DNA of 64,000 nt from Cyclobacteriaceae bacterium (GTDB taxonomy: Bacteria > Bacteroidota > Bacteroidia > Cytophagales > Cyclobacteriaceae), in assembly GCA_050250195.1 (NCBI GenBank), contig JBFWPC010000011.1, positions 8,164 through 72,163 on the forward strand. Reading direction: 5' to 3'. Under the pieces are notes generated by a model. It was not told where the DNA came from and ran no database searches. It saw only the letters and a program-made list of their open reading frames with translations. The translations under genes and the position numbers were made by a program. Below are positions 3,147 through 27,238 of this stretch, in pieces (position 1 is the first letter of the stretch; the number at the start of each line of letters is the position of its first letter).

Positions 3147-3758
3147 TTAATGATTAGAAGCCTTAGCTAGTGTTTCGGAGAATGGTATTTGTGAATATTT
3201 TAGAAAGACCTTATCCGGATACGAAAAATTTAGAACGCATTCTGATTCGTTTTTAAGGGCACGACCTTGAACATCTCTCAATTGCTCCTTTTTAAGGACT
3301 GCCCCTCCCTTCTTATCGTAATAAACGACCTTTTCAGATACTAATGGGTCTTCGCTACAGTTGGAGTCGAAAAAAGTAATCTTCTTCTTGTAAGCAATCG
3401 TATTTCCATCTCTGTCAAAATAATGAGAAACTGTGACTCGGTAATCCCCGGATTCAATAAACGGTACTCCAATGAGTGCAATCACTTTATTTTCCCTAAA
3501 AACGACATTATACATATAGTTATACCGTTTGTCATTCATACTGTCCAATGAATAAACTCTTTGAGGCATCGAACTCATTGACGATTGAGTAAATATTTTT
3601 ACAGCACCTAAATCTTTGTTTTGAACTAATTCTTGGGTAAGAGAGATAATTTTATCAGCCTTGTCAATTCTGTTTTGGGAGGAACCGGTACATGCCATCA
3701 AACAAAAACCAAAATGCACGAATACAATAAAGACCCAGTTTCTGCGGCTATTTTTCAT
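3147..3758 (-). CDS. lipoprotein, putative immunity protein for the orphan CT2 toxin
   Basis: 203 aa with signal peptide and lipobox (FGFCLMAC). The start overlaps the CT2 stop by 11 nt. AT-rich composition, typical of Rhs tip/immunity cassettes. Confidence 0.7.
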   Translation of the reverse strand: MKNSRRNWVFIVFVHFGFCLMACTGSSQNRIDKADKIISLTQELVQNKDLGAVKIFTQSSMSSMPQRVYSLDSMNDKRYNYMYNVVFRENKVIALIGVPFIESGDYRVTVSHYFDRDGNTIAYKKKITFFDSNCSEDPLVSEKVVYYDKKGGAVLKKEQLRDVQGRALKNESECVLNFSYPDKVFLKYSQIPFSETLAKASNH

Positions 3759-4524
3759 CCTCTTTCTTCTTGACAGTTATGGTTTCAGTTCTTTTCACTT
3801 TTGTATCATCAACAGTCTTGTTAGTACTACCATCAACCTGTGTTTGATTAGCGTCACGGATTGATTTAAAGTTTTCATCAGTACCCCTCTTGTCGATATG
3901 GACTCTGTCAGGATCATTGAAATCTCCTCCATATCTCCAATCTTTTTCTTTTACTTTCTTGATGAATGCATGATCTGATTTCAGATTCTTATTCTTTGAT
4001 TCTAATCCCTTCGAGACATCGTTATCCGTGTAAATGTTGAAATCTATAGCAAGCCCAGCATTATGGGGACTATTCCCAGCGGAAGCTGGTGTAATCGCAT
4101 CCTTGCTTCCACCCAGTTCTTCTTGCTTTTTATTTGTTCTAAATGAACTATTAATGTGTATATAAGTTCCTGTTTCAACCGCATCCCCAAGTATATCTTG
4201 AACATCACTAAAAATTGTGTGATCAATGTACACTGTACTCTCTCCTTTAATATATCCAGATTCATCATTAATCGTTACTTTGATAAGGCTATCCCCTTTA
4301 TGATCAATAAATATTAATGGATTATTAGCTCCATACTGATAAGGATTAATTGGGTAATACTTTTCTGAGAATCTATCTGGAGTAAAAAACCTTCCGATTT
4401 CTGGTAAATACATCCTAGCCCCGTAGTCTAACCAATCAATTCCTAGCTCATCCTGCTTCTCTTTTCCATTGTAGAGGTATTGATTAGCAACCGAGTTCTC
4501 TCTCTGGTACGAGTTAAACGTCAA
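3748..4524 (-). CDS. orphan (displaced) Rhs C-terminal cassette CT2: RHS-associated core domain plus VanY/M15-like (LAS) peptidase toxin domain
   Basis: It begins inside the conserved Rhs motif (YYPFGL)TFNSYQRENS...YGARMYLPEIGRFFTPD. There is no ATG (TTG in the track). The C-terminal half has SPHNAGLAID (SxHxxGxAxD) and DRVHID motifs typical of M15 D-Ala-D-Ala carboxypeptidase-like enzymes. Confidence 0.75.
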   Translation of the reverse strand: MTFNSYQRENSVANQYLYNGKEKQDELGIDWLDYGARMYLPEIGRFFTPDRFSEKYYPINPYQYGANNPLIFIDHKGDSLIKVTINDESGYIKGESTVYIDHTIFSDVQDILGDAVETGTYIHINSSFRTNKKQEELGGSKDAITPASAGNSPHNAGLAIDFNIYTDNDVSKGLESKNKNLKSDHAFIKKVKEKDWRYGGDFNDPDRVHIDKRGTDENFKSIRDANQTQVDGSTNKTVDDTKVKRTETITVKKKEDEK

Positions 4525-4539
4525 ACCAAATGGATAATA
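4507..4539. repeat. att-like site A (gtacgagttaaaCgtcaaAccaaatggataata); the minus strand encodes YYPFGLTFNSY
   Basis: It differs at 2 positions (4519, 4525) from the identical copies at 12621-12653 and 20735-20767. The element sequence starts at 4540. Confidence 0.85.
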
Positions 4540-4744
4540 AACTACACCACTTTTCCGACACCTTCACAGACCCCCTGCAGCACCTTTTCAAAGAACTTTT
4601 TGCAAGTCATAACTCGCAGGTTAAAGATAGGTTTTTCTTCTTTCAATTGAAAAAAAGAAAGGCCGAGTTCCGAGGCATTTTTGTGGACAAAAATACATCT
4701 TGCTGCTGCCCATTTCCGGCAGCTTACAAAGCAAAAAGAGAAGC

Positions 4745-4924
4745 TCAGGGCTTCTCCTTTATGGACTTCACTTCATCGGCAAAAACGGTTGCTACCTTTT
4801 CGTCCTGCAGGTCGGGGAACTCCTGTTTTACGGCTTCTACTTCCTGGTCATTGAGCAACCGGGCTTCTCCGTTATCATCGTTGTGGATCGCCCATCCGTT
4901 GGAGTACTTTCTGATGTAATACAT
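4745..4924 (-). CDS. small hypothetical protein (59 aa) next to the element end
   Basis: Hand translation gives MYYIRKYSNGWAIHNDDNGEARLLNDQEVEAVKQEFPDLQDEKVATVFADEVKSIKEKP*. It falls below the ORF-track cutoff and runs in the same direction as the integrases. No family recognised. Confidence 0.45.
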   Translation of the reverse strand: MYYIRKYSNGWAIHNDDNGEARLLNDQEVEAVKQEFPDLQDEKVATVFADEVKSIKEKP

Positions 4925-5015
4925 AGCTGATTTGGTTTAGAGTTTAAAAGACATTTCCTAAAAGAAAAAACAGAAAAAAAGAAAGCGCTTCATCCAGGTG
5001 GCGGGGCAGACGGAA

Positions 5016-5660
5016 GCAAGGTTTTTGAAGAAAAAATTTTTACCCCTTATCAATCAAGCACATCAAAAATTTTTTCTTCAAAACCCGCAGGGCTTGACCT
5101 TGCTTGCGGCTGAACCGTCCACCTACCTTTGTGCGTCTTTTTTTGATGTTGTCTTTACCTGTATTTCACTTCCGGCATCCAGCCGGTTTTAACAACACAC
5201 CTGGCTATCCGATGAACTTTCCTACAACGCTCCATCACGGTGAGTACCCATGCGCGCCCGAGCAGGCGTACGGGGGTTGCGGGGGGAGCCTGCGAGGAAC
5301 AAGGCGCGCACGAACAATGGGGCATGGCTGGCGACCGCTTTCCCCCCGCAAAAAATTTCCGCCAGCCATGACCGTGCAAGCACAAGTTGTGAAGCGAGTG
5401 GAATGACTGAGGCACGAAGGAATGGAACGTCCGAGGTACACAAGGCATGACAAAAGCGTAATGGAAGTAGGTAAAATAAATGTTCATCAATCAACGTGGT
5501 GGCGGTGTGACGAAGCAAACACCTTTTTCTTTTTCAACTGAAGTTTACTTTGGCACACGGCCACACCATTCGTCCATTTATTTTACTTACTGTAATGAAG
5601 CTTTTGGCGTGACTTGTGTTCCGAGGCCTGAACAACTTGTGCGCAGCACTCCGCTTCTAC
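5016..5660. repeat. structured non-coding region: nested inverted repeats and GC-rich hairpins (candidate ncRNA, ori or recombination arm region)
   Basis: A perfect 19-bp inverted repeat lies at 5023-5041/5065-5083. An 8-bp GC inverted repeat lies at 5251-5258/5303-5310, with an inner gcaggc/gcctgc pair. An 11-bp perfect inverted repeat lies at 5323-5333/5360-5370. Imperfect 52-nt arms at 5431-5482/5575-5626 match at about 39/52 positions. The outer pair is 5380-5390/5632-5642. Confidence 0.6.
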
Positions 5661-5725
5661 CTTGAGGCATGCCGAAGGATGCCAGGCGAGGGTCGGTATG
5701 TGCGCGGGAAGCAGGGTCGGCCGGA

Positions 5726-6613
5726 TCACTGCAATGGATGGTACTTCCTGAGTTGCTCTTGCAGATCTTCTAAATGGGTGGCCTGATATTTTTCCGTGGT
5801 ACTGACGTATTTGTGTCCGCTCATGTATTGAACGACTCGTATATCATTCTTTCGTGTCCACTCGGCTATCGTGCTGGCTCTGATCTGACTGGCATGTTTT
5901 ACCTTCTCATGTTTCAATCGCTTCATCATCCAACCAACTTCTCCGGCAAGTCTTGTCGCTCCTTCCATACCAATGATCAGTTGTTTGATCTTCTCCGGAT
6001 CAGTCACTTTTGGCCCGTATAAAATCCGGTTCCTTGTCTTGTTCAAGTACTCTTGCAACTCAAACACCTGGCTTGCTTCCAGCTTCAATACCCTTTCATT
6101 CGTCCGGTCTGTCCCAGGGATTTTTATTTTTCCTTCCCGTAAGTTGATGTGCCGTGGTTCGAGTAGTTCAAGTTCTTCTATCGTCACAGCCTGGAAGATT
6201 AGTAAGCTAAGTATTACTTTGTTCCGTTGATCTCTGATATCGGTTACCTGATAATTTTCGTACAACTTCATCAGCTCGTCATACTCAACCAGGTCATGGG
6301 GTAATCTCCTGGCTATGCCTCTGATGTAAACGCCTTGTGCCGGATTGCTTTTTACCTTCCACGTCTTTACCAGGTAATGGAAGTAATGCCGTATCGCCAA
6401 TAACTGATGTTGAACGTTGGTTTTACTTTTACCTTTTTTATGACTGTATTTGATATAGTTCATCAGGTCTGCATAGCGGATGTTCTCGACCGGATAGTGA
6501 TGTTTGTCTATCCACTCCAAAAATTCCTTGATCCCATTCTCGTAAATCCGGATTGTACTTTCTGAGAACTCTTTTCCCGTTAAGTAGTCTTTAAAGCTTT
6601 TCATGGATGACAT
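5726..6613 (-). CDS. tyrosine recombinase/integrase paralog B, with apparently degenerate active-site boxes
   Basis: 295 aa with an N-terminal SAM-like domain. The C-terminus has ...SQIRASTIA...GHKYVSTTEKY. Box I reads AVTIEEL where GLRxxEL is expected. Confidence 0.8.
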   Translation of the reverse strand: MSSMKSFKDYLTGKEFSESTIRIYENGIKEFLEWIDKHHYPVENIRYADLMNYIKYSHKKGKSKTNVQHQLLAIRHYFHYLVKTWKVKSNPAQGVYIRGIARRLPHDLVEYDELMKLYENYQVTDIRDQRNKVILSLLIFQAVTIEELELLEPRHINLREGKIKIPGTDRTNERVLKLEASQVFELQEYLNKTRNRILYGPKVTDPEKIKQLIIGMEGATRLAGEVGWMMKRLKHEKVKHASQIRASTIAEWTRKNDIRVVQYMSGHKYVSTTEKYQATHLEDLQEQLRKYHPLQ

Positions 6614-7487
6614 GGGTATAAATTTGTGTTGCTTCCAGTGAACGGTGTCCTAAAAATTTTGCAATGTGCGCCAGCTTCATTCCGCTTTGCAAAAGATGTG
6701 TAGCAATGCTGTGCCGTAATGTATGTAAGCCGATATCCTTTTCGATCTTCGATAACCTGGCAAGTCTTCTCAACCGGATCAGTAAACTTTGTCCTCGTAT
6801 GCGATAGCCTTTGTCACTGACTAGCAATGCAGGGATTTTGTTTCTGGTCATCAAAAATGGTCTGCTGTGATCCAGGTAATCTTTGATGTGCTGCAGGGTT
6901 GTTTCACCTGCCGGCACGTATCGTTCCTTGTAGTTCTTTCCTTTTCGCACATACACGAGCTGGCTGTTAAAATCTATGTCGCTTACATCGAGCTGCACCC
7001 CTTCATTTCTTCTTAAACCACAACCGTAAAAAATTCCCAGCATCACCTTATCACGCAAGCCAAGTACACTTCCGTCCGTGGCTTTGTAAAGCTCTTTCAC
7101 TTCGGCTGTGGTCAGGATATCAGGCACGTGTCGTTTCTCCGGGAGTCGCTCGGTCTCCACTGTAAAGCTTCCTCGATCGGTTTGTCTCACGAACTGGCTC
7201 AGCAAGACCAGGGCCTGGTGATATTTGTTGATGTGACCAGTGCTTAGCTTTCCGCCATGTTTGGCATGTGGCCGCTTCTTCAGTTGAAAAATAAAATCGT
7301 GAACGTGTTGTGCTGTTATCTCCCGGACTTTCTTGACCTCTTCACTTTCCAGCCAGTGAAAAAATTCGTGCATGTACAGTGGCATGTTGTACACGGTGTT
7401 TTCGGCATAGCCTAACAGTGCAAGCCATTCTTTAAAGTCGAGTTCCAGCTCACGGTATGCATAGGTATTCAAGGGTAGATTTTTCAT
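6591..7487 (-). CDS. tyrosine recombinase/integrase A (canonical catalytic residues)
   Basis: 298 aa with GCGLRRNE (box I Arg), HTLRHSIATHLL, GHRSLEATQIYTH (His/Tyr). It overlaps integrase B by 23 nt. Confidence 0.9.
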   Translation of the reverse strand: MKNLPLNTYAYRELELDFKEWLALLGYAENTVYNMPLYMHEFFHWLESEEVKKVREITAQHVHDFIFQLKKRPHAKHGGKLSTGHINKYHQALVLLSQFVRQTDRGSFTVETERLPEKRHVPDILTTAEVKELYKATDGSVLGLRDKVMLGIFYGCGLRRNEGVQLDVSDIDFNSQLVYVRKGKNYKERYVPAGETTLQHIKDYLDHSRPFLMTRNKIPALLVSDKGYRIRGQSLLIRLRRLARLSKIEKDIGLHTLRHSIATHLLQSGMKLAHIAKFLGHRSLEATQIYTHVIHEKL

Positions 7488-7540
7488 GCTACTTGGTTTA
7501 TGGTTAGTAAAAATTTTGGATTCTCCTTATACACCCTTTC

Positions 7541-7645
7541 TGGGACGCGGGACGCCAGACACGTTTTCTTCATTTGCTGATTGTTCTGGCCGATTCTTGC
7601 CTGTTCTGGCGTCCCATCTGGCGTCCCAGGTGTTTGGGACGCCAA
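7541..7645. promoter_or_regulatory. iteron-like cluster of GGGACGC(C)/GGCGTCCC motifs between primase-helicase and integrase A
   Basis: gggacgc is at 7542 and gggacgcc at 7549. tggcgtccc is at about 7607 and 7618. gggacgcc is at 7636. ttctggc is also repeated. That makes five motif copies within about 100 bp. Confidence 0.55.
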
Positions 7646-7647
7646 GA

Positions 7648-10260
7648 CTAAACTGTAATTAACTCAAGCTGATCAAGCTGGCCTTGCAGGTGTCTCTTTA
7701 CTTTCGCGCGAAGCGCTTGTATGTTGTCCCAGTAAAGTACTTTGTAGTTAAAGCCTCTGTTGATGTATCCTCCGGCCTGCCGGATGTATTCCAGGGCCAA
7801 CAGGTCTTGTATGTAGCGGTGCAACTGGCTCTTGCTGATGTGTAGTGCCTGCCTGATCTCTCGCTGGTTAAACTCGTAGCTTTGGTAATGACTGTTGCCT
7901 TTCGTTTTGACATACTGCTTTAATCGTTCATAAAACTGCCGCAAGCTTCCGTCCAGTTCATCCACCTTCAGCACAATGCTTTCAAACATGATCTCGGCTG
8001 CTATTTGAAGATCTTCTTTCTCGCTGATCAATCGACCTTGTGCATCGGTCTTTCGCTGGTATTGATGTAGTAAAGTGATTTGCTTCACAAACGCCTGGTA
8101 CAAGCCGTTCAGCCTTCTGATCTTGTGCGCTTCTTCCGGAAGATGAACTTTGTCAGCATAGGGATTGATCACCTGGCACGGCTTTAAAAGTCTGATGCAA
8201 TGCTGTAAAAATTCCGTGATCTGCTGCTCTCTCTTTTCATCGATCTGGCCAGCGCTCTTTTTGTTTTGATACTGGATGATCTTAATCGTCTGCTCGTGGC
8301 TTTCATCTACAGCAATCAAAAAACAACGGCTCATGTTGTCTTCGTATATCTCGCCTTTGGTAGTACAAGCCATCGATGCAATCGGGCCGTAAACGATTCG
8401 CTCGTAAGCATTCACGTTGCCGTGTTCGTCTTTGCTGGATGTGCTGCTAATGATCACACCTTTGCTTTGCAGCTCTCTAAAGGCAAGCTGCGCTTCTTCC
8501 TTCATCCCGTCCAGGTCTTCGATGCAGATCAATTGATGGCTCAGGTCATACATGCCGTAATTGTACAAGCTGCCTTCCGTCACTCTTGTAAATGCTTTCC
8601 TGCCTTCCTTCGGTATGAAGCTCGAGACCTTTGCCAGTAGATGTGTCTTTCCCGATCCGCTCGAGCCCTGGATAAGCGCGTGCAGTGTCTCCGGCATTTT
8701 ATAGCTCGATGCAATGCCGAACAAAAAAATACGGTTCGTTTCTTCACCAACTACTCCGGCCTGGCCGATCAGGTCGTTGAGTCTCCTGATCAGGTTGGGC
8801 TTACTCAAAAACTCTTTGCATTTGCCTTCCAGGTGTAACGGTACTTGTATGCCTTGTGAGGTTGCGGGTTCTTTGTTCTGGCTTTGCTTTTCCCGGTGTG
8901 CTTCCAATAAGCTGGTAAGCTCTTCCAAATCGAGTTGTATCATATCGGCACGCAAGCCAAGCTTATCGCTTGCATCCCTGGCCAGCTTATCTACTTGCTT
9001 ATCTTCGTACAGATCAATCTTGCTGCGGCTCTTTCTTCCGTTCTGTGGATGCTCGATATCAAGGCTTACGCGCAGGGATTCAAAGTTGCCGTGCAGCTCA
9101 CCTTTGATGTGATAGTTTGCTGTGGCTGTTCTGTACAAAAAACGATGGGGGAAGATTTCAAGCTTGTAGCTGTTCGTTGGTGTAGCCGTGCTTTTACTTT
9201 CAACTCTCCCTGGGACTCCTTCCGGAGAAAAAATGACAACTCGCTTCTCGATCAGGTGTGTAAAGATTTCTTTCTCATGTGCCTGCGCCAGGCTGTTCAC
9301 ATCTTCACCTTCTGGTGTGTTCACCTGGCTAATCGTGATATCCTTTCTGATCTCCTGGAGCTTTGCTGTTACTTTCTTTGTCCCTTCTCTTCCGGCTTCA
9401 TCACCGTCAAAAAATAAAATCACTTCTTCAAGGTGCTTCAGTTCCCTGATCGCTTGCTCATGTTCCTGGATAAATCCATTCGTTCCATAGCAGGCCAATA
9501 CGGTGTATTCGCTTGTGATCGTTGTTAGCTGATGCAAGGTGGCCGCATCAATGATCGCTTCTGTTAAGATCAGCTTCTTTGTCTCCGCTCCTGGATAAGC
9601 AGGATAAAGGCCCTGGTGTGGACCGGGTAAGTAGTAATGTTTGCCGGTCCCGGGATCCTCACTTACGCTGCGGCCATAGATCCCCACCGTGTGGCCTTGA
9701 ACATTTTGCAGGGCGAACACCAAACAGTTTTTGAAGCGATTGAGGTAACGCCCGTCCTGTGTTTTGCTGATCAATCCAATTGCTGCAGCGCTTTCCTTAT
9801 ACTGCTTGTTCCAGCCCTCCGGTACTTTCTCCCCAGTGAAGCCAAGCTTTAATGTCTGCCAGTCTAATCCTCTTCCAGTGGCGTATACTCTCGCACGTTC
9901 TCCGTTAGACATTCCTTTCCGGCATCCTTCCAGGTAACGGGCAAGAACGGCAACCCTGCTAAGTTCTTCCGGTTGATTTGCTTTCGTTTCAATAAAGCCA
10001 AGCAATGACTTGGCTTTCAGGATCGCTTCACGTTTCGTGCTCTTCTCCATTAACCGGATAAACTCGATCACATCTCCTGTGCCGGCTTTGCAATTGGATG
10101 AGAAGCAACAAAAGGTATTGGTCTGCGGATAGATTTGAAGGGAAGGCGTCTTGTCGTTATGGAAGGGACAGCAAAGCATGTTATTCTTGTCTGTGCTCAG
10201 GCTGTAGTGATCGAGCACCTGGCTGATGGTGAGCTGCTGTTTGATCTCAGCTATTTCCAT
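7648..10260 (-). CDS. DNA primase / P-loop NTPase (helicase-like) replication protein
   Basis: 870 aa. It has an N-terminal CHC2 zinc finger (CCPFHNDKTPSL...CCFSSNC) and a Toprim motif (LFFDGDEAGREG). It also has Walker A (GSSGSGKTHLL), Walker B (LICIEDLDG) and a C-terminal wHTH-like tail. Confidence 0.85.
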   Translation of the reverse strand: MEIAEIKQQLTISQVLDHYSLSTDKNNMLCCPFHNDKTPSLQIYPQTNTFCCFSSNCKAGTGDVIEFIRLMEKSTKREAILKAKSLLGFIETKANQPEELSRVAVLARYLEGCRKGMSNGERARVYATGRGLDWQTLKLGFTGEKVPEGWNKQYKESAAAIGLISKTQDGRYLNRFKNCLVFALQNVQGHTVGIYGRSVSEDPGTGKHYYLPGPHQGLYPAYPGAETKKLILTEAIIDAATLHQLTTITSEYTVLACYGTNGFIQEHEQAIRELKHLEEVILFFDGDEAGREGTKKVTAKLQEIRKDITISQVNTPEGEDVNSLAQAHEKEIFTHLIEKRVVIFSPEGVPGRVESKSTATPTNSYKLEIFPHRFLYRTATANYHIKGELHGNFESLRVSLDIEHPQNGRKSRSKIDLYEDKQVDKLARDASDKLGLRADMIQLDLEELTSLLEAHREKQSQNKEPATSQGIQVPLHLEGKCKEFLSKPNLIRRLNDLIGQAGVVGEETNRIFLFGIASSYKMPETLHALIQGSSGSGKTHLLAKVSSFIPKEGRKAFTRVTEGSLYNYGMYDLSHQLICIEDLDGMKEEAQLAFRELQSKGVIISSTSSKDEHGNVNAYERIVYGPIASMACTTKGEIYEDNMSRCFLIAVDESHEQTIKIIQYQNKKSAGQIDEKREQQITEFLQHCIRLLKPCQVINPYADKVHLPEEAHKIRRLNGLYQAFVKQITLLHQYQRKTDAQGRLISEKEDLQIAAEIMFESIVLKVDELDGSLRQFYERLKQYVKTKGNSHYQSYEFNQREIRQALHISKSQLHRYIQDLLALEYIRQAGGYINRGFNYKVLYWDNIQALRAKVKRHLQGQLDQLELITV

Positions 10261-10429
10261 TGGCTGTCGGTTTAATGGTGATCTCCTGGTCTTTCACTGT
10301 GATCTGAACTTGCTCTCCAATCTTGAAGCCGGATTGTTCCAACCATTGGCCAATCAATCGGACTTCGGGTACTGCTTTCTTGTCGTTGCTGCGGTAAGAG
10401 TGGTAAACTTTCAGCTTGCGGTCTGCCAT
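10247..10429 (-). CDS. SymE/AbrB-fold (SpoVT-AbrB-like) small protein
   Basis: 60 aa. The segment VPEVRLIGQWLEQSGFKIGEQVQITVKDQEITI matches the SymE-toxin/AbrB swapped-hairpin pattern. It overlaps the primase start by 14 nt. Confidence 0.6.
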   Translation of the reverse strand: MADRKLKVYHSYRSNDKKAVPEVRLIGQWLEQSGFKIGEQVQITVKDQEITIKPTANGNS

Positions 10430-10570
10430 GAAAATTTTTTTCTGTTGTGTAACATCTGCAACAAAAGTAGAACTTGTTCGGATTTTTCAAAACGAATACC
10501 TTCTTTTTTTGTAGAACACATTAAACTAAATTCGCCAAAATCAGTTGTAAAACTTAATCTTTAGCAGAAC
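10430..10570. promoter_or_regulatory. divergent promoter/operator region between the SymE-like/primase operon and the XRE gene
   Basis: 141-bp AT-rich gap between divergent genes. GTAGAAC is repeated at 10467 and 10511, with GCAGAAC at 10564. A short inverted repeat ttgttg...caacaa lies at about 10444-10466. Confidence 0.4.
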
Positions 10571-10906
10571 ATGGTCAACATTGGGGAGCGGATTACTGAG
10601 CTCAGGAAGCGGAAAAACTGGTCGCAAAGCGATTTGGCTGAAGCCATCGGGGCTTCCAGGGATATCATTGGCAAGTACGAACGTAATGAGAACAGCCCTT
10701 CTGTGGAGATGGCGGTAAAAATTGCCAAGGCCTTTGATGTTCCGGTGGACTACCTACTTGGTGAAGGTAAGCACGCTTCGTACAGCAAAGAGACTGTGAA
10801 GCGCATTGAGGAAATTGAGTCCATGGATGACAAAACCAGGTCTGTCCTGTTTAATCTCATTGATACTTATATCCGCGATGCAAAGGCGCGTAAAGCTTAT
10901 AGTTGA
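10571..10906 (+). CDS. XRE-family helix-turn-helix transcriptional regulator
   Basis: 111 aa. IGERITELRKRKNWSQSDLAEAIGASRDIIGKYERNENSPSVEMAVKIAKAF is a typical Cro/C1 HTH. Confidence 0.9.
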   Translation: MVNIGERITELRKRKNWSQSDLAEAIGASRDIIGKYERNENSPSVEMAVKIAKAFDVPVDYLLGEGKHASYSKETVKRIEEIESMDDKTRSVLFNLIDTYIRDAKARKAYS

Positions 10907-11121
10907 TGAGCACTGCTTCTCTTGTTAACTCTGCCGGCCTGGTCATTGACATCATCGGTGCGCTGATGATCTTTCTAAATTCTCCCAAGCTGGAAGCCAC
11001 TGCCTTTATCGGTGCCACTGCTGACGATCCTGTTGTCAACCGAAGAAACAAAATCGCTAAGTATGGAATGGGCGTGATTATGATCGGGTTTGCTTTCCAA
11101 CTCGTCAGCAATTTCTTATAA
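10903..11121 (+). CDS. small two-TM membrane protein, translationally coupled to the XRE gene
   Basis: 72 aa with two hydrophobic helices. Its ATGA start overlaps the XRE stop. Confidence 0.55.
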   Translation: MMSTASLVNSAGLVIDIIGALMIFLNSPKLEATAFIGATADDPVVNRRNKIAKYGMGVIMIGFAFQLVSNFL

Positions 11122-19235: not shown

Positions 19236-19271
19236 AGAAAAAACCTAGCGATTAGGCTGGGCTTCTAAGTT

Positions 19272-19808
19272 TTAGTATGTGTATGTCTTTATGAGCTTAC
19301 CTTTTTTGCTATACTTCTTAACGGTACGTAATTTGCCGTCCGGATAATAAAATTTCAGCTTTCCAATCGGAATACCTTCTTTAAAAAATCCCTCAACCCT
19401 CTTATTACCATTTTCATAGTAATCAATTTGAGTACCCTCGCATTTCTGATCACAGCAACAATAACCAATGAAGTTAGGATGCGATGTTGGTTCAAGGCAT
19501 GAACTAACTCTTATAAGACGAAGTGTGTCACTAAAATTTTCAATTGATTTTACATCAAACTTTTTCCCAAGTTCAGTGCTATCAATTTTTCCAATCACAT
19601 AAGATAGAACATATGTACCAGTATCCTTCAATATGAGAACACCAGTGGTATCTTGGGTATTGAAAGCAATTCCATCCTTTTTTAGTCCAAAAAAATCAAT
19701 CCTCCTGACCTCCTTTGAGCAAGGATCATAGCCATAAAGGTTAAAATTTATTTGACCGAAAGCGGAAAAACAGATTATCAAAAAAGTCAAAGTCAAAATG
19801 CTTCTCAT
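19272..19808 (-). CDS. secreted MORN/YwqK-like immunity protein for CT1 (copy adjacent to the active Rhs)
   Basis: Translation identical to 11158-11694. A 4-nt overlap with the Rhs stop codon. Confidence 0.7.
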   Translation of the reverse strand: MRSILTLTFLIICFSAFGQINFNLYGYDPCSKEVRRIDFFGLKKDGIAFNTQDTTGVLILKDTGTYVLSYVIGKIDSTELGKKFDVKSIENFSDTLRLIRVSSCLEPTSHPNFIGYCCCDQKCEGTQIDYYENGNKRVEGFFKEGIPIGKLKFYYPDGKLRTVKKYSKKGKLIKTYTY

Positions 19809-22800
19809 CTATTTGGTTGGTAGTAGGTAGTTCCATTAAACCTAAATGCCTGTCTCGTTAACCCAGACAATCGAGTCAGCTCGTATTGATTCATTTGACT
19901 TAACGGCCTTCCTTGATAACTATAATTATTTACATCCACGGGGCCGGTAGGCAAACTTTTATATCTATCTGGCAAAGAGTTCACCCCGTTTGCGCCTGGC
20001 TCACTACTTCCAAAAAGTGCTTGTCGTTGATAGCCGGCCACTTCATCATGTTTATCAAGTAAAAAAGGAGCACCAAGTCTACCTTGTGAGCCTAGACTAA
20101 TTTGTCCGGTCTCAAACTGATAGCCGTGTTTCAGTTCGTGAGCAAAAAGCCCAAGTCCTGCATTAGATGAGATCGTGATGTCAACGGCACCTGTACCAAA
20201 ATTAAATGAGGTGGCAGCTACTGTATTTCCCATGCCCGATATTGGCCCGTTTTCATTTAACGAGGAACTTTCAACTACATTATACACTTGACTTGATGCC
20301 GCCATCGTTCCTATTTCCCCCCGCGTTTCTTCAAGTGCCTGGTTATTAGATTCAAGTCTACCAATTTGTCTATTGAGGCGATTAGTTTGTTTCTCTGAAA
20401 GTCCACCTGCTGCAAGTGCTTCTCGTTTCTCTCCAATCTTTTCATTGTTCCGTTCCTGTCTGCTGTTGATATCAGCGACCAATCGATTAACCCATGCCCA
20501 TGCTGCTTCTGTAAACTCCATCCCATTGGGGTCTATGTAGCGTATCGGATTGTTTGCCATCGCTACATAAGGAGACATACTGTAAAACTTCTCCGCAAGT
20601 GGATCAGGACTCCACCAACGACCGTCCGATGGATCGTACATCCTTGCACCAAAATCGTATGTATCCAAGTCAAGGCCATCTTGGATTTCTTTGCTTTGAT
20701 ACAAGTACTTGTTTTCAGCTGAGTTTTCGCGAGAGTACGAGTTAAATGTCAATCCAAATGGATAATACTCATCACTCTGCACCACCGGGCTTTGCGTGTG
20801 GGTAACGGCCAGATCATCGAAGTAAACTTCCACGGGCGTGTCGTTCTCGTTGGATAGGTAAATATACATATATCCAGGCTCGGTGATGGTGATCGGATCA
20901 AAGTACAGCCTGTCATGGGGGGCATCTTGTCCGTACTCTCTGCTGTTGCTGGTAACGCGCCTGTAGCCAAAATCAAGTACATCGGTCATCTTCTTGTTGA
21001 ACAAAATATAGTTCAAATAGGCCTTCGGTGCCGTGCCCCCTTCGCTGCTGTGGTCGATGGGAGTAAATGGGTACGTTTCGCTGCCGATACTGCCGGGTAC
21101 ACCACCGTCAATCACCGTGCCCGGAGGGGCTGTGCCGCCCGCTACGGCCGCCATGAAACTGGCGAGCGCACCCGTCCAATTCGATTGCTCGGGGTCGAGG
21201 TATTTGGCGTACACTTCCATGCTCACCTGGTCGCCCGGCATCACCTGCAACGATTTCGCCAAGCCATAAATCGAGTTAGTACCCTGGCCTGTCAGTCGTG
21301 TGGAGTACCAGGTACCTCCCTCGTTGGTGTGGTCGAACAAATCGTAGTTGACCTTCACCGCTTCCTCGTAGTACAGGAACTCCCCTTGCTCCTCTGCCGC
21401 ATGAGCTGTTTCCAGGGTGGCCACATCGGTGGTGACAGACTCGCGCGTGGTAAACGTCAATCGCGTGTTGCCCAGGTGGTCTTTCAAATGGTATTGGTAT
21501 TCGGCCTCATTGTTGAGCAACTGGATAACCTCAATATCATTGATATAAAACACCTCTCCTGCCGCTACGGTGTTCCACACCACGCCCACGTCCATCACGC
21601 TGGCACCGGCCGGAACAGTCACGTGCTGCTCCACCCAACTTTCGGAGGCGGCTGTGTTAGGCAGTGTCGCCCCCGGCCAGCCGTTGTCGGCTCCGTTGAT
21701 TTTAACCTGTATGTACACGGGGTTGGTACCTGTTCGGTAGCCCTTCACACGCACTTTGTAACGTTCACCGGGTTGTACGGCTATGTAGTTTCCTATTGGA
21801 AACACCCCTGCACGAGGCGTGGTCCCACTCGATGTTACCTGGACATAGTTCTGGTTGCCATTGAGCGTAGTAATGCCTGCGGTTGCATTCGTGGGCGTGA
21901 AATCATCGAGGGTGTTTGCCTGGTTGCCGTAAATGGGTTCGGTTGCGCTCAATACAATGCGGCCCTCTTCGTGGCTGATAAACTGAAGTTCGTCATTTTC
22001 GTACACCAGCTCACCCAAATAATCGGTTTGCTTTTGGGATAGGCTGTAAGTGGCCACCTGCGCGAGTTTGCGGCCAGTGGCATCGTAGATATAACGCACC
22101 GAGTTACCCGTGCCCCTAACTACCAATTCGGGCAGGTTGAGGAAATTGTAGGTGATGTTGCTGGTAATACCTTTGTTTTGATCTCGTACCATATTTCCAT
22201 TGGCATCGTAGGTGTAATCGTTGCCTGTGTTGGTGCCATCAATGAAGCCGGTCACCTTGTCGCCTGAGTCGGCCACTTTTAACAATTGGTTATTGGCATT
22301 GTAAGTGTAGACCAGGTTATCCATTAAACTTCCTGCGTCACCTCTTCGCAGCAGCGTCTTGATATTGCCATTCTGGTCATAGGTCAACCCATTTTCGGCA
22401 AACCGGCTGTCGGGGTTCGACCAACTGCCGTTGTGTCTGAAATAGTCGGCATTTTGCAGGCGGTTGAGGGGATCGTAGCTGTAACGGTAGGCCTGCTGTT
22501 TTTCGTTACCCAACCCGAGGTTCTTGCTCCACTTGATGGCACTGATGTTTCCGTTGTAAAGACTGGTGTTTCCCAACGCAGCATCGACCTCGTTATAGGC
22601 GATGTTCATGCCCCACAGGTCGTTGCTATCGTCATTGTTGACAGCTACTTGAAGTTGCGCGTTGTTCATGGAAGTGAGCCAGCCGCGAATATTATAACGA
22701 TAATCGACCGACTGTCTGAAGTTGGTGCCATCTGTGCTGTGCAGTTTTTTGTCGACCAACTGACCGAGCTCGTTGTATTCGTTGCGGGTGAGCAGAATCT

Positions 22801-25800
22801 CGGGGGCATCATTTAGACTATGATGCACATCAATCAGCCGTCCGGCATGGTCGTAGGTGAAACGCCTTGTGATGGAGCGGCTCGTCTCCGCAAATGACGC
22901 CACGAGCCCCACCATATTTGCGTTGTTGGTGGGGAATGAGGTATCGATTAGCAGCGCACCAGTAAATGGCGTGACGGAAGTGTATACGAGGTTGCTATTC
23001 CGGTAATACCGAATGGTGCTGCCGGTTCTATCGATCTTCAGCACGTCACCCGTTTTCAAAACGTTGGTCTGCGATAGTTTTTGCACACCATTCTCCCACA
23101 CTTGCAGGGTTGCATTGTTTACCCTGAATGCATAGTTGATGTTGGCGTTCCCCACATCAAGATTGTTGTCATTAAAACCGATGTAATACTGATGTGTAGA
23201 CGATGGGGCAATCAAAAAGAACTCCAGGTAGCCATCCACACCGGCCCCCAGCATTTGGGTAGATGCCGCACCGGCCGTGGCAGTGGAACTGCGAATCAGT
23301 CTGTTTCCGACCAACACCGTCCCCACCTGGTCTTTCCAGGTCACATCGCGGTCGGTATAAGTTGTTTTTGTTTTGAGCACCTTGCCTACAAAGTCATACA
23401 CGTTGGTGGTTCGGTCTTGGCCACCTTTGTAGTTATCGACAATGCTTTGCACCAGCCGATAGCGGTCGTCATAATAAGAGATGGCCTTCAGGTAGGTCGA
23501 TCCTCCGATTACACCTCCGTCCATTACCTTGGTTTTTGTACCTGTTACCTGTCCCTTCAAACGCGTGAACGGTTGCGTAACTTGCTCGCCAGTAAAATCA
23601 CTATCTACAAAGTTGTAGGCAGTGCTGTTGTAGTAGGTTGATTGGAAGTCGTAGTTATCGTAGTAAGTCACCGTGAGGTAGTAATTCGGATCAGCCACAG
23701 CTGCCCTGGTTCTGATGGGATAGGCAAGGTTGGAGTAGCCATGCATGTTGCCCAAAGCATTTCCCACAAAGGTTTCTGAAAAACGAGCCCAAGCCTTTTG
23801 GTAGTGCGAATCTACCACCCCCTGCATTTGCGATTGAGTGAGTCCCACCGTTGTATCCTTAATTCCTGTAACGATCGGTCTGTTGAGTTCATCGTACTTG
23901 GTAAACGTCCAGTACTTGGTGGAGGTGGCGCGTTGCACGCCATCCTGGGTTAGGACCAGTCGATCGCGTGAATCGTATACCATGTAAATCCATGCACCAC
24001 TGGGTACTTTCTTTTCAGACATGCGGTTGCGGTAATCATATTTGTACTGGAAAGCAAAGTTGTTGAGCTGGGTGGTGGTGGGGTTGGTGGTTCCGCTGGC
24101 GTGAAGCGTTTTGCTCAGTTCAGGCTGCAGCACATAGCGAAGCAAGCCACGTTCGTCATAGATGTAGTAGGTTTGTGTCCAGTGATCTTTGTTGGACAAT
24201 ACCGGGCTAGCCACATACTGCACCTTCTTCAAAACAACCTGTCCTTCTTTGTTTTTATATTCCCTGGTCTCATTACCAGCCTCATCCCTTATTGATGAAA
24301 TACTCAATTCGCCATTGGGGTAATAGCCGGCATTTAAGCTTGTGCGCCTCACCGGTAATCCGCTACCGTTCACGTCCCAAACAATCACTTGTTCCTGGCC
24401 TGAACCCGTTCCATGCTGATTGATGAGGTACTCAAACTTTGTGGATCTTGAGTTCGCGTGCCAGTCGGTACCTGCACCAAATTCCTCGACTGGTCGGTTC
24501 AAAGGCGATGCTTCAAAAAACGTCTCCGTGAACGGACGTGCGTCATCGGCAATCTTATCAGTGCCCCCGTTGTTGTAGAAATTATAGTGAATGGAACCGG
24601 AATAGTTTCCGCCACTGCCGGTGGGATTTAAGATCAAAATACCTGTAAAAGAGTCAGAGACATAGGGGGTGTATTTCTTGGCTTGTCGTCCGTATTGGTC
24701 GTAGGTCACATGCTGGACAATATCATTCTTTGACAGTGATCCCTGAGTGACCACAGACTGCCATGGCCGTCCCAGTCCATCCAAATACTGTACAGACTGT
24801 GAATTTAAGGCCACTGGTAAATTCTTAATGTCACCGGCATTGGTAACAGGTGTCTGCAAATTATTGCTCACCACATAATTGTAGTTTAGATTTTCAAATT
24901 GCTCTGTCAGCACAAAGGGAGTTGAAGTACCCGTTGCAGACCCCTGGGTAACTGTGACTGTGTAACTTCCAGGAGCATTTGTGGAGTAATACCTTCCAGA
25001 ACCCAGGCTAGGCCCACCATTTCGCCAATCATAAGATTGATAGCCAGCTCCTGCATCAAGCACCACATCTTTTGCCAGCGCAATTGCGTTCCCTGTACCC
25101 ACGACCATTACATCCGGGTAAACGACCAGGTTGGCCCAAGTTGGGGTGCTGTAGCATCCATTTTCGATTTTCTTGGCATATGCATAATTGGCGGTTGTCG
25201 TGCTAATGACCGGTGTGGTGTAAAGGGCGCTGGTTGACAGCAAAGCATTTGAAGGACTATACCACTCATAAGAGCTTCCGCCCGAAGCAAGCAAATTGAA
25301 AGTGCCGCTTCCGAATCTTTCATGTCCGGAAATGCTCGGGGCAGTGGGAATCGCTTTTACAGTAGCCACAATGGCGACTCTGGCGCTCTCACAAAGCGTG
25401 GAGGAATGATAGCTGCTTATGTAGTAGGTGGTAGAAGAACTAATTGTTGGCGTAACATAGGACAAGCCCGTTGCAAATGGTGCCCCGCCACTGGGCGTTG
25501 CGTACCATCTCACGGTATTGGCATTGGCGCCAAAACTTGCGGATAAAGAAACCGTTCCGGTGCCACAGGTACTTCCATTCACAGGTGTGGGTGTGCCGGG
25601 AATGGCGTGCACAGTTGCCGAAACCGCCACTCGTTGGCTCTCGCAAAGGGTTATGTCGTTATAACTGGAGATATAATAGTTAGTAGATGCACTAATTGAA
25701 GGTGTTGTATAGGAAAGACCCGTAGTTAACAACGTTCCGCCAGTTGGAGCACTGTACCATCTGACATTGTTTCCGTTGCTCCCAAAATTCGCTGAAAGAA

Positions 25801-27238
25801 ACACAGAACCCGATCCGCAAACGCTTCCCCCCATTCCAGATGGAAGGCCCGGAATTGGATTTGTAGACACATTCACCGAGGTTGACATTTGTTGGTAGCA
25901 AAGTCCGGGCCCAACGGCTTCCACAGTGTAGTTCCCTAATGTAGTTTGGTTAGTCCAATAAAGGGGCCCACCGGTTCCCGCAGTTACTCCTTCCGCATAT
26001 TGCCCGTTAATTTTTAGGTAATAATTTACACCGGATTGTGATCCATTGAGGGAAACAGTGACGCCACTGCTTCCCGTGCAGTAAGCACCCCCTCCTGCAA
26101 CTGTGTAACTATTTGGAAGGGGATATACTGTAATCGAAGCGCTTCCGATCATACCATTGACGCAACCGGTAGTTGGATTGGTACCAATCACAGTGTAATT
26201 GCCTGCCGAAGTTAAACCAGTCCACGCCAACTGACTAAAATTGCCAGCTTGCACTCCTCCATAAGGACTTCCGTTCAGATAGAGCTGATAATTGACTGAT
26301 GACTGAGAGTACGACAAGAACACAGCTGAACTTCCACCACTGCAATGGCTTCCCCCTCCAAATACATTGTACTGACTTGGTAAAGAATTAATGTATACAG
26401 ATGCACTGCCAGACATAGCGGAGCTGCAAATACCAGAAGTCGCCACCACCGTGTAGGATCCAGCCGTTGTGAGATTGTTCCAGTTTAACGCGCCACCGGT
26501 GCCACCGATGGCAGCTCCATAGTTGGCTCCATTAAGCTTGAGTTGGTAGCTTACTCCGCTTTGAGACCCGTTGATTCCAACCGTAGTACCGCTACCTCCT
26601 GAACAATATCCCCCACCACCCGTCATTGAATAGGTGACGGGATATTGGTAAACGTTAACAGTTGCGACATTTGACAATGCAAGGCCACAAGAACCAGGAT
26701 AACAGCGATAATAGGTTGTGACTGTTGGATATTGAGTGATCGAAGCACCGAACGTGCCAATCGCATTCCATGTGGTACCATCCGTTGAGTACTCCCAATA
26801 GAATGAAGAGCCCGTATGGCCTGAAAGAAACAGACTTACAGCCCCTCCAGCACAAGTTTGTGTTGTTGAGGAAAGCGTTCCTGGAGTGAGCGTAGTGACA
26901 TATTTTGTGCCAGTGCTAACAAGTAGGCCGTAATTGTAGAGTGTCACTGTAACACTACCATCTGAGGGGAATTTTATCACTCTCGATAGTCCAGAACCGC
27001 TCACAATAATTCCACCTCCGGCCACGCTCCATACTACATCAGTATATTCAACATCATCATAGTATGAGTAGCTGGCATTCTTATTGGGGCATACTTCTTC
27101 AGGCCCGGTAAAACTTTGGCCTATTGACGTGAGGCAAAGCAACGAACTAATTATGAACACACCGAATGACAAGGTATATCTACCACATTGCGGGCGTTTC
27201 AACGCAACATATCTAGTAACAAACCTGTCGTTTCTCAT
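19805..27238 (-). CDS. Rhs/YD-repeat polymorphic toxin with N-terminal Ig-like tandem repeats and a C-terminal HExxH tip (CT1)
   Basis: 2477 aa with a signal-like N-terminus. It has about 90-aa repeats (GGG.YC.G...Y.V.A) and RWY..P.GG repeats. Many YD repeats are present (YDQYGRQ, YDERGLL, YDHAGRL, YDPLNRL, YDANGNM, YDATGRK). The RHS-associated core reads YYPFGL...YDFGARMYDPSDGRWWSPDP...IDPNGM. The tip contains FAHELKHGYQ. Confidence 0.92.
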   Translation of the reverse strand: MRNDRFVTRYVALKRPQCGRYTLSFGVFIISSLLCLTSIGQSFTGPEEVCPNKNASYSYYDDVEYTDVVWSVAGGGIIVSGSGLSRVIKFPSDGSVTVTLYNYGLLVSTGTKYVTTLTPGTLSSTTQTCAGGAVSLFLSGHTGSSFYWEYSTDGTTWNAIGTFGASITQYPTVTTYYRCYPGSCGLALSNVATVNVYQYPVTYSMTGGGGYCSGGSGTTVGINGSQSGVSYQLKLNGANYGAAIGGTGGALNWNNLTTAGSYTVVATSGICSSAMSGSASVYINSLPSQYNVFGGGSHCSGGSSAVFLSYSQSSVNYQLYLNGSPYGGVQAGNFSQLAWTGLTSAGNYTVIGTNPTTGCVNGMIGSASITVYPLPNSYTVAGGGAYCTGSSGVTVSLNGSQSGVNYYLKINGQYAEGVTAGTGGPLYWTNQTTLGNYTVEAVGPGLCYQQMSTSVNVSTNPIPGLPSGMGGSVCGSGSVFLSANFGSNGNNVRWYSAPTGGTLLTTGLSYTTPSISASTNYYISSYNDITLCESQRVAVSATVHAIPGTPTPVNGSTCGTGTVSLSASFGANANTVRWYATPSGGAPFATGLSYVTPTISSSTTYYISSYHSSTLCESARVAIVATVKAIPTAPSISGHERFGSGTFNLLASGGSSYEWYSPSNALLSTSALYTTPVISTTTANYAYAKKIENGCYSTPTWANLVVYPDVMVVGTGNAIALAKDVVLDAGAGYQSYDWRNGGPSLGSGRYYSTNAPGSYTVTVTQGSATGTSTPFVLTEQFENLNYNYVVSNNLQTPVTNAGDIKNLPVALNSQSVQYLDGLGRPWQSVVTQGSLSKNDIVQHVTYDQYGRQAKKYTPYVSDSFTGILILNPTGSGGNYSGSIHYNFYNNGGTDKIADDARPFTETFFEASPLNRPVEEFGAGTDWHANSRSTKFEYLINQHGTGSGQEQVIVWDVNGSGLPVRRTSLNAGYYPNGELSISSIRDEAGNETREYKNKEGQVVLKKVQYVASPVLSNKDHWTQTYYIYDERGLLRYVLQPELSKTLHASGTTNPTTTQLNNFAFQYKYDYRNRMSEKKVPSGAWIYMVYDSRDRLVLTQDGVQRATSTKYWTFTKYDELNRPIVTGIKDTTVGLTQSQMQGVVDSHYQKAWARFSETFVGNALGNMHGYSNLAYPIRTRAAVADPNYYLTVTYYDNYDFQSTYYNSTAYNFVDSDFTGEQVTQPFTRLKGQVTGTKTKVMDGGVIGGSTYLKAISYYDDRYRLVQSIVDNYKGGQDRTTNVYDFVGKVLKTKTTYTDRDVTWKDQVGTVLVGNRLIRSSTATAGAASTQMLGAGVDGYLEFFLIAPSSTHQYYIGFNDNNLDVGNANINYAFRVNNATLQVWENGVQKLSQTNVLKTGDVLKIDRTGSTIRYYRNSNLVYTSVTPFTGALLIDTSFPTNNANMVGLVASFAETSRSITRRFTYDHAGRLIDVHHSLNDAPEILLTRNEYNELGQLVDKKLHSTDGTNFRQSVDYRYNIRGWLTSMNNAQLQVAVNNDDSNDLWGMNIAYNEVDAALGNTSLYNGNISAIKWSKNLGLGNEKQQAYRYSYDPLNRLQNADYFRHNGSWSNPDSRFAENGLTYDQNGNIKTLLRRGDAGSLMDNLVYTYNANNQLLKVADSGDKVTGFIDGTNTGNDYTYDANGNMVRDQNKGITSNITYNFLNLPELVVRGTGNSVRYIYDATGRKLAQVATYSLSQKQTDYLGELVYENDELQFISHEEGRIVLSATEPIYGNQANTLDDFTPTNATAGITTLNGNQNYVQVTSSGTTPRAGVFPIGNYIAVQPGERYKVRVKGYRTGTNPVYIQVKINGADNGWPGATLPNTAASESWVEQHVTVPAGASVMDVGVVWNTVAAGEVFYINDIEVIQLLNNEAEYQYHLKDHLGNTRLTFTTRESVTTDVATLETAHAAEEQGEFLYYEEAVKVNYDLFDHTNEGGTWYSTRLTGQGTNSIYGLAKSLQVMPGDQVSMEVYAKYLDPEQSNWTGALASFMAAVAGGTAPPGTVIDGGVPGSIGSETYPFTPIDHSSEGGTAPKAYLNYILFNKKMTDVLDFGYRRVTSNSREYGQDAPHDRLYFDPITITEPGYMYIYLSNENDTPVEVYFDDLAVTHTQSPVVQSDEYYPFGLTFNSYSRENSAENKYLYQSKEIQDGLDLDTYDFGARMYDPSDGRWWSPDPLAEKFYSMSPYVAMANNPIRYIDPNGMEFTEAAWAWVNRLVADINSRQERNNEKIGEKREALAAGGLSEKQTNRLNRQIGRLESNNQALEETRGEIGTMAASSQVYNVVESSSLNENGPISGMGNTVAATSFNFGTGAVDITISSNAGLGLFAHELKHGYQFETGQISLGSQGRLGAPFLLDKHDEVAGYQRQALFGSSEPGANGVNSLPDRYKSLPTGPVDVNNYSYQGRPLSQMNQYELTRLSGLTRQAFRFNGTTYYQPNR
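20735..20767. repeat. att-like site C, inside the full-length Rhs ORF (encodes YYPFGLTFNSY)
   Basis: Identical to site B. Upstream on the minus strand the sequence is unique Rhs core (..SPVVQSDE). Confidence 0.85.

Follow-up and report, generated by a model that had tools for sequence, protein, structure and literature searches.

A 64,000-nucleotide stretch of the metagenome-assembled genome (MAG) Cyclobacteriaceae bacterium GCA_050250195.1 (contig JBFWPC010000011.1, positions 8,164-72,163, forward strand), referred to here as the window, contains an Rhs gene followed by two identical tandem units of 8,114 bp. These units probably (we put the probability at about 0.8) represent an integrase-encoding, replication-competent element whose attachment site is a conserved motif in Rhs coding sequence and whose cargo consists of a toxin tip and an immunity gene. 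This was the central proposal of a preliminary description based on the sequence of the window alone, and it is now supported by synteny in 151 loci, short crossovers, circular-type contigs and two isolate replicons. Of the refuting conditions set out in that description, none of those that could be examined applied. The evidence that carries it was observed directly, namely the structure of the units, the family-wide association with Rhs, the short crossover windows, the circular-type contigs and the diversity of the cargo.

All coordinates are positions in the window, and the Rhs locus and both units are read on the minus strand (Table 1). Comparison of the window with itself revealed that 4526-12653 is the same as 12640-20767 at an offset of 8114 bp, with zero mismatches over 8128 bp, which confirms the boundaries of the repeat as described earlier (an 8,114-bp unit with one site occurring three times). 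With the third site included, the similarity covers 4507-12653 and the only mismatches are at 4519 and 4525. A degenerate pattern for YYPFGLTFN gave three exact matches, all on the minus strand (4513-4539, 12627-12653 and 20741-20767), where zero are expected from shuffled sequences. The 33-bp site (TATTATCCATTTGGATTGACATTTAACTCGTAC) encodes YYPFGLTFNSY and forms three junctions: J1 between the Rhs shell and the tip CT1, J2 between the two units, and J3 between the element end and a different tip, CT2. The 2477-aa Rhs open reading frame (ORF) passes through J1 into CT1, in agreement with the earlier reading. J1 and J2 are identical throughout, while J3 differs by A to T and A to G (window positions 4525 and 4519, site positions 15 and 21, respectively). 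As the deviation of J3 starts at site position 15, the exchange that made J1 and J3 lies within the first 14 bp, TATTATCCATTTGG.

The three junctions were recovered in an independent assembly of the same reads. In the separate Logan assembly of run SRR27751815, contigs break exactly at the branch points predicted from the window: one contig (L001, 8128 bp) starts with TATTATCC and ends with ...CCATTTGG, and a second (L075) begins 16 nt inside the element end and runs through the variant site into CT2. J1, J2 and J3 are therefore all present in the reads. Exact copies of the Imm1, Imm2 and primase proteins, looked up elsewhere, were found in the source sample only.

The position of the site within the Rhs protein defines the cargo. 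Homologues of the Rhs shell share 45-59% identity and are annotated as RHS repeat-associated proteins, with PF05593/PF25023; for the 2477-aa protein no RHS/YD repeat is listed by Pfam or NCBIfam at E<=1e-3. The Rhs-associated core domain TIGR03696 covers residues 2158-2240 (51.7 bits against a cutoff of 32.5), and its first residue, 2158, is the first Tyr of YYPFG. Both orphan ORFs match TIGR03696 from their first residue. The DPxG autoproteolysis motif follows ~80 aa downstream of the site, as IDPNGME (NNPIRYIDPNGME) in CT1 and as the degenerate IDHKGDS (NNPLIFIDHKGDS) in CT2. The cargo thus comprises the complete terminal core domain together with the toxin, and the site, previously placed at the core/tip junction, is instead the start of TIGR03696, ~80 aa upstream of DPxG. 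CT1 has no toxin family match (a HELKH motif only) and Imm2 has no family match; export signals are present in both immunity proteins. The Rhs start codon is separated by 8 bp from the end of a 1149-aa ORF (27246-30695), the C-terminus of which contains one YD/RHS repeat. This ORF may be a partner gene in its own right; alternatively, a stop or frameshift may have detached it, as the N-terminal portion, from an even larger Rhs protein. Large ORFs are likewise found directly upstream of the Rhs gene in Aureibacter.

Related loci and the position of the crossover

The primase belongs to a family of more than 3,400 proteins (E<1e-20), many of which are encoded on contigs of ~8 kb. The proteins of the window and a hidden Markov model of the core fragment were mapped onto 151 loci, 73 from one-genome-per-species contigs and 78 from metagenomes, in which primase identity ranges from 87% down to 38%. 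The gene order [shell]-core fragment/tip-(immunity)-XRE (opposite strand)-(SymE)-primase-IntA-IntB-spacer-next core fragment is kept. All 196 core fragments (99 genome and 97 metagenome) are on the strand of the primase. Where sufficient flank was present (at least 4.5 kb upstream of genome primases, at least 3 kb in metagenomes), a core fragment lies upstream of the primase in 42/45 genome loci (within 4.5 kb) and 25/27 metagenome loci, and downstream of IntB in 31/34 and 23/24, respectively. With 67 of the 72 testable primases preceded by a core fragment in the same orientation, the prospect that homologues would never be found beside Rhs genes, which would have spoken against the element, is dismissed.

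The genome exceptions comprise a locus with a very short fragment at a further target motif (L040), one with an insertion sequence (L046), one with a split IntA (L008) and a decayed remnant that still bears an att-like scar (L064). Inspection of these four (the three metagenome exceptions, L175, L183 and L196, were left out) revealed no intact tipless homologue in an unrelated locus.

Where a full shell is present, the tip fused to it is the one then trailed by the element in 27 of 33 loci. The 80 non-redundant tips have the core domain alone in common, and the toxin domains found among them include HNH/AHH/GH-E nucleases, EC869-like CDI toxin, NucA/NucB, colicin-type cytotoxic, glutamine deamidase and M91/M23/M15 peptidases. 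The homology searches proposed in the preliminary description thus yielded relatives in other Bacteroidota that are flanked by Rhs core fragments and carry different tips. The CT1 toxin is absent from all of the collected relatives, even from those with close backbones, whose primases are 78-87% identical. Members of the family occur in at least five orders, and cultured carriers include Aureibacter tunicatorum NBRC 107587, Aureispira sp. CCB-E, Chryseotalea sanaruensis Ys and several Chitinophaga. Short element contigs are also present in MAGs labelled Proteobacteria, Nostochopsis, Luteolibacter, Desulfobacteraceae, Bifidobacteriaceae and Microcystis (L006, L009/L010, L056, L066, L072 and P0119); these labels probably reflect mis-binning of a multicopy or mobile Bacteroidota element and not true hosts.

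Crossover windows were determined from four complete J1/J2/J3 triads, those of the window, A. tunicatorum plasmid pAT2, the Aureispira sp. CCB-E plasmid and a long-read Saprospiraceae MAG. The crossover in the window is confined to 14 bp. On pAT2 the unit is 8169 bp, the identical run 8177 bp and the common core 8 bp (TATGGATT), while on the Aureispira plasmid the unit is 7652 bp, the run 7658 bp and the core 6 bp (TACGAG); the Saprospiraceae core is 20 bp. In all four triads the crossover is at the very 5' edge of the Rhs homology carried by the element, against a conserved non-Rhs arm, even in Aureispira, where the incoming and displaced tips are 85-90% identical for ~300 bp directly past the core. 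The arm (…TTTTTCAATTGAAA…TATCTTTA…GTTCTTTGAAA…GGAAAAGTGGTGTAG) recurs across lineages, whichever Rhs motif comes next, and its palindrome (TTCAATTGAA) is upstream of 63% of orphan fragments compared with 8% of random windows and 1/33 shell-fused copies. The Rhs fragment starts at a different motif in different lineages (YE.SNHLGN, EVYFDD, YYPFG, YRYGFNGKE, DYGARFYDP or LYGYVGD), and clusters of IntA track this start position with few exceptions.

These features bear on whether the exchange is site-specific or homologous. According to Jackson et al. 2009 (PMC2935791), the resident core recombines with a circle that brings a core fragment and a new tip; the old tip is left downstream as an orphan, and arrays arise from repeated events. 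The outcome and the topology, a single crossover with the old tip downstream, are the same as those of the element, and a small plasmid with an orphan tip/immunity cassette could enter the Rhs core by RecA-dependent recombination, with the Xer-like pair only resolving multimers. IntA and IntB have their best scores against XerC/XerD models, and some tip pairs share long similar stretches (L122, L068 and L044), as this explanation would have it. Crossovers of 6-20 bp are, however, too short for RecA, which would moreover scatter crossovers over the homology, so that RecA exchange does not fit; J1/J3 similarity is often ~30 bp and imperfect (L003, L042 and L063), the non-Rhs arm is conserved at the boundary in all lineages, and IntA clades co-vary with the targeted motif. 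We therefore consider RecA-dependent entry improbable. The short edge crossovers, the conserved arm and the tracking of motifs by IntA fit an exchange by a tyrosine recombinase over a short overlap, as judged from sequence comparison. The element would thus differ from the circle of Jackson et al. 2009 in being a replicon with its own recombinase pair and a crossover in 6-20 bp at a fixed edge.

In three of the four resolved cores (window, L076 and L061) a Tyr codon is followed by GG/CC (TATCC in YYPFG; TATGG in YRYGF and DYGAR), from which the Aureispira TACGAG deviates. This hints at a common overlap preference that could explain hopping among Rhs motifs.

Circular-type contigs, tandem units and arrays

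Ten contigs (three genome and seven metagenome) have terminal overlaps and contain a whole unit without a full-length Rhs shell; two of them keep short shell-like fragments. One self-closing contig (L123) encodes a primase 87% identical to that of the window together with a different tip, and its overlap ends at the 14-bp position of the window. These contigs and the presence of J2 in the reads would fit the circular unit of the preliminary description, as they would a tandem array.

Outside the window, 16 adjacent unit pairs were found, of which seven are identical, two diverged (96.5% and 98.3%) and seven made up of different elements. The two diverged pairs indicate that arrays are real genomic states and persist. 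Plasmid pAT2 and the Aureispira plasmid, both complete isolate replicons, have a full Rhs gene, two identical units and a different orphan tip, as in the window.

The newest element is repeatedly present as exactly two (sometimes three) identical tandem units (window, L076, L122, L061+L065, L029, L011, L045 and L071). Possible causes are integration of a dimer, re-integration from episomes, or a state that releases a circle while one copy stays. In both complete genomes the targeted Rhs gene is on a large plasmid and not the main chromosome (L076, pAT2, 295 kb; L122, Aureispira, 77 kb). In L025, L005 and metagenome loci (e.g. cx<PABcccc), some arrays consist of orphan tips and XRE without primase or recombinases and others are orphan runs between the shell and the element, which suggests in-place decay of elements or other routes of tip insertion.

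Several points weigh against the interpretation of the units as an integrative element. The first concerns the dimer in the window, which could be an outcome of assembly: with one integrated copy and free circles (or a mixed population), the loop would have been threaded twice. The two copies are 100% identical, the source is a MAG, and the de Bruijn graph is the same for one copy plus a circle as for a dimer, so the Logan contigs fit both. The pattern of two identical units, however, is found in two complete isolate replicons and in six other MAG or draft-genome loci, and diverged tandem copies exist. An assembly artefact is, in our view, rather unlikely, though it deserves serious weight; J2 is real either way, and the artefact would alter the copy number and leave the nature of the element unchanged.

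The second is that the empty-site allele (shell fused to CT2), a search for which had been proposed in the preliminary description, was not found: the path is absent from the Logan graph, the best shell homologue is 59% identical, and the exact shell-end pattern is absent from the metagenome contigs. The attB side, moreover, bears little resemblance to the attP-left arm. Symmetric inverted repeats around the core, as binding sites for the recombinases, were sought and found clearly at the Aureispira site only (TAGAACA-TTACGAG-TGTTCTA), and no general core-site structure is therefore claimed. Terminal overlaps of contigs, like the J2 signal, can be produced by a tandem array as well as by a circle. 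No relaxase was found among the nine candidate unit genes scanned (CT1, Imm1, TM ORF, XRE, SymE-like, primase, IntA, IntB and the 59-aa ORF) and no virion or packaging genes were found, the PHROGs matches being to primase, integrase and regulator only; IMG/VR contains no relatives, only distant DnaG-type primases (24-28% identity). The unit thus has no mobilisation, conjugation or virion gene to account for spread between cells. Lastly, excision, the free circle and its integration are steps that we infer.

Other identities of the unit were considered and rejected. These are a phage or phage satellite (no virion or packaging genes, no IMG/VR relatives), an NBU-type mobilizable transposon (no relaxase match in the nine unit genes) and a chance insertion.

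Genes and non-coding features of the unit

The ORF and domain calls agree with the gene list of the preliminary description, with refinements for the two recombinases and the replication protein. Both IntA and IntB are tyrosine recombinases, as described, but the complete catalytic set belongs to IntA alone. The R, H, R, H and Y of IntA are invariant in 58/58 homologues, and the position of the Lys is K in 39, R in 15 and S in 4. In IntB, Thr stands in place of Arg-I and Asn in place of Lys, and of the other catalytic residues Arg-II, His-III and Tyr are retained but not His-II; this degenerate pattern is found across 55-58 homologues. The best models for the two proteins, XerC/XerD, are matched far under the NCBIfam cutoffs (IntA 177 bits against 329.6 for XerD; IntB 115 against 335 for XerC). 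An identity as XerC/XerD dimer resolvase was rejected, as neither protein reaches the equivalog cutoffs, and so was an integron integrase, for which IntA scores 120 bits against 265 and 68 against 435 (TIGR02249 and PRK15417 cutoffs, respectively).

The replication protein was previously described as a primase-helicase. Its primase is of the DnaG type, and the helicase part is MCM-like by predicted fold. There is no PDB match at the sequence level past residue 344. An AlphaFold2 model of the remaining 511 residues (pLDDT 72.9, pTM 0.62) gave MCM subunits for all of the top 50 Foldseek PDB matches (best E 6e-10, TM ~0.4), and we assign an MCM-like helicase fold to this C-terminal part with moderate confidence. 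The joining of a bacterial DnaG-type primase to a module with an archaeal/eukaryotic MCM-like predicted fold is an unusual fusion, with thousands of family members. XRE is a core gene of the element family, and its orientation is always opposite to that of the primase. The 59-aa ORF, a weak relative of which is present in four metagenome loci only, is doubtful as a gene.

The iterons of the preliminary description were found as repeats between the primase and IntA genes, a candidate origin or operator. The spacer, which had been described as structured, carries long inverted repeats, among them a 131-nt hairpin that is likewise a candidate origin. Rfam at gathering thresholds gave a distant tRNA only, and a permissive scan of the spacer gave spurious miRNA-hairpin matches only; the spacer is therefore not a known RNA. 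A Bacteroidota-type promoter was sought by eye in the attP-left arm and none is claimed, since the spacing does not agree with the consensus.

Table 1 Features of the Rhs locus and of the two units in the window.
Feature	Position	Strand	Description
Rhs ORF	19805-27238	-	2477 aa
Rhs shell, resident delivery scaffold	20768-27238	-	Residues 1-2157; DUF6443 and Ig_7 (Pfam)
J1 (attL-like)	20735-20767	-	33-bp site; Rhs shell 5', CT1 3', frame open
Tip CT1, copy A	19805-20767	-	Fused in frame to shell (expressed copy); TIGR03696 at 20519-20767, IDPNGME, HELKH motif
Imm1, copy A	19272-19808	-	Signal peptide, MORN repeat
Element backbone, copy A	12654-19271	-	100% identical to copy B
TM ORF, copy A	19017-19235	+	
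XRE, copy A	18685-19020	+	
SymE-like, copy A	18361-18543	-	
Primase-MCM (predicted fold), copy A	15762-18374	-	
IntA, copy A	14705-15601	-	
IntB, copy A	13840-14727	-	
Spacer and attP-left arm, copy A	12654-13839	-	
J2 (attP-like, between units)	12621-12653	-	Element end with in-frame stops, identical 33-bp site, CT1
Tip CT1, copy B	11691-12653	-	Orphan; in-frame stops upstream
Imm1, copy B	11158-11694	-	Signal peptide, MORN repeats
72-aa membrane (TM) ORF, copy B	10903-11121	+	No family match
XRE-family HTH regulator, copy B	10571-10906	+	Pfam HTH_3, 1.8e-17
SymE/AbrB-fold small protein	10247-10429	-	Pfam SymE_toxin, 5e-16; overlaps primase start by 14 bp
Replication protein, 870 aa	7648-10260	-	CHC2 zinc ribbon and Toprim, DnaG-type primase, aa 1-340; P-loop; MCM-like OB/AAA+/winged-helix (predicted fold), aa 360-870
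Iteron-like repeats	7541-7645	-	GGGACGCCAGA, two direct and two inverted; between primase and IntA genes
IntA, Xer-like tyrosine recombinase	6591-7487	-	Full R-K-H-R-H-Y set (aligned to XerD 1a0p)
IntB, Xer-like paralogue	5726-6613	-	Overlaps IntA by 23 bp; degenerate active site
131-nt hairpin	4995-5125	-	AT-rich 22-bp arms (TTTTGAAGAAAAAATTTT...); z = -7.3; kept in close relatives
59-aa ORF	4745-4924	-	No family match
attP-left arm	4540-4665	-	Palindrome TTTTTCAATTGAAA, then TATCTTTA, GTTCTTTGAAAAGGTGCTGCAGGG, then GGAAAAGTGGTGTAGTT touching the Rhs homology; kept across family
J3 (attR-like)	4507-4539	-	Same element end as J2, then site with two changes, CT2
Displaced tip CT2	3748-4539	-	TIGR03696 core domain and Peptidase_M15_4/VanY toxin
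Imm2	3147-3758	-	Lipoprotein-type signal (LMAC)

Elsewhere in the window, a 44-bp unit occurs as two tandem copies (95% identical) at 1207-1294, between a thymidylate synthase gene and a 528-aa ORF of unknown function. A gene for a Fic/DOC-domain protein (35889-37367) lies near a tRNA gene (37958-38028), and no link to the element was seen.

Proposed mechanism and relation to known systems

The proposed mechanism extends by inference to catalysis by IntA/IntB, autonomous replication, regulation and movement between cells. The 8,114-bp unit would be a small integrative replicon, the circular form of which would hold a replication module (the DnaG primase-MCM-like helicase, the iteron-like repeats and the hairpin-rich non-coding region), a regulatory pair (XRE and the SymE/AbrB-fold protein) and the Xer-like pair, with IntA as the catalytic member and IntB as its degenerate partner. 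The circle would have one attachment site, the right half of which would be the first codons of the Rhs terminal core domain, followed by the toxin and then the immunity gene. IntA/IntB would recombine this site with the identical short sequence in the resident Rhs gene (TATTATCCATTTGG, codons for YYPFG). The in-frame crossover would fuse the host shell to the core domain and toxin of the element, with the immunity gene travelling along, and would leave the old tip, with its immunity gene (CT2/Imm2), orphaned further downstream. The left junction would again be target-like, so that more copies or other elements could insert there and give rise to tandem units and orphan arrays.

Phage 21 and e14 in icd, tRNA-targeting islands and Bacteroides NBU1 integrate within the 3' portion of a gene and supply a new 3' end for it. 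As in these elements, a tyrosine recombinase would act at a short identical core in a conserved gene, and an element-borne distal segment keeps the frame. They restore the same product, whereas the Rhs element swaps in a different toxin with a matching immunity gene; it also has an MCM-type (by predicted fold) replication module and no Mob/oriT genes. The proposed mechanism has precedents in integrative elements by which the distal part of a gene is exchanged; it is the target, cargo, consequence and replication module that are new.

IMEX elements such as CTX phage rely on XerCD of the host, recombine at the chromosomal dif site and form tandem arrays. Xer-type recombination and frequent tandem arrays of identical units are shared with the Rhs elements, which by contrast encode their own pair and target Rhs coding sequence. 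Shufflons (R64 Rci) swap the C-termini of PilV by inverting resident segments; there too a tyrosine recombinase acts on a conserved coding repeat to change the C-terminal part of a surface or delivery protein, but in the Rhs locus a mobile replicon would integrate and no resident segment is inverted. BIM/RIT elements reportedly have tandem tyrosine recombinase genes, and the element is similar in arrangement, with two adjacent, overlapping tyrosine recombinase genes; BIM/RIT elements are not known to carry a replicon or to target Rhs. In integrons, a tyrosine recombinase inserts circular promoterless cassettes beside a resident expression signal, with the newest cassette closest to it, and the Rhs units would be arranged likewise. 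In the element, however, the recombinase travels with each unit and the product is an in-frame protein fusion and not a transcriptional one.

Arrays in which orphan immunity genes and toxin fragments accompany Xer-like recombinases, with conserved intergenic motifs, have been noted before in Bacteroidota. XerC/D-like genes are found beside polyimmunity loci (Zhang et al. 2012, PMC3482391), and in the rAID systems of gut Bacteroidales one recombinase heads a defensive array of short genes (PMC12247911). A recombinase pair is present in every Rhs unit, compared with one at the head of a rAID array; this distinction is drawn from the published descriptions. In view of these precedents, and of the lack of transfer genes in the element, the Rhs units could be a domesticated, non-mobile platform (integron- or rAID-like) that shuffles resident tips within one genome. 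Each unit, however, has its own replication protein and recombinases, in place of one platform for many cassettes, and closed contigs of 8-11 kb lack a full-length shell. Unrelated tips are found on close backbones (80-87% primase identity) from different samples, the family is present in at least five orders, and many copies are on short contigs binned to unrelated taxa. A resident platform is thus very unlikely.

No description of such an element was found in the full-text literature (most subscription journals are outside this coverage), in line with the preliminary description, which was aware of no dedicated site-specific element targeting the Rhs core with the tip as cargo. Three papers that surfaced were set aside. 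A paper on Bryopsis/Tydemania chloroplast genomes names rhs, primase and integrase together, but for unrelated genes that lie in different regions; one on the Ornithobacterium hominis RHS array reports tip sharing and no such element; and one on the Neisseria T6SS mentions XerCD only for the dif sites of the gonococcal island.

Since 2009, the gain of Rhs tips and the pile-up of orphans have been explained by homologous recombination with hypothetical circular intermediates. The present locus, together with ~150 relatives, instead suggests a specific molecule: a circle that replicates itself, encodes its own recombinases and would insert at a few conserved codons. We lean, less firmly than for the element itself, towards the broader view that phylum-wide integrative replicons of ~6.5-11 kb are the dedicated engine of Rhs tip displacement and orphan arrays in Bacteroidota, and that they are the integrase-bearing circular intermediate that Jackson et al. 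(2009) called not known for Rhs. The shell would be hijacked by site-specific in-frame fusion, carriers would attack siblings without the immunity gene and so enforce maintenance of the element, and the attachment site would have moved among at least six core motifs with the recombinase co-evolving. If this is true, selfish mobile elements that exploit the delivery machinery of the host would drive the diversification of toxins in Bacteroidota, the order of orphan arrays would be a readable record of past invasions, and the element would offer a compact system for programmable in-frame C-terminal swaps.

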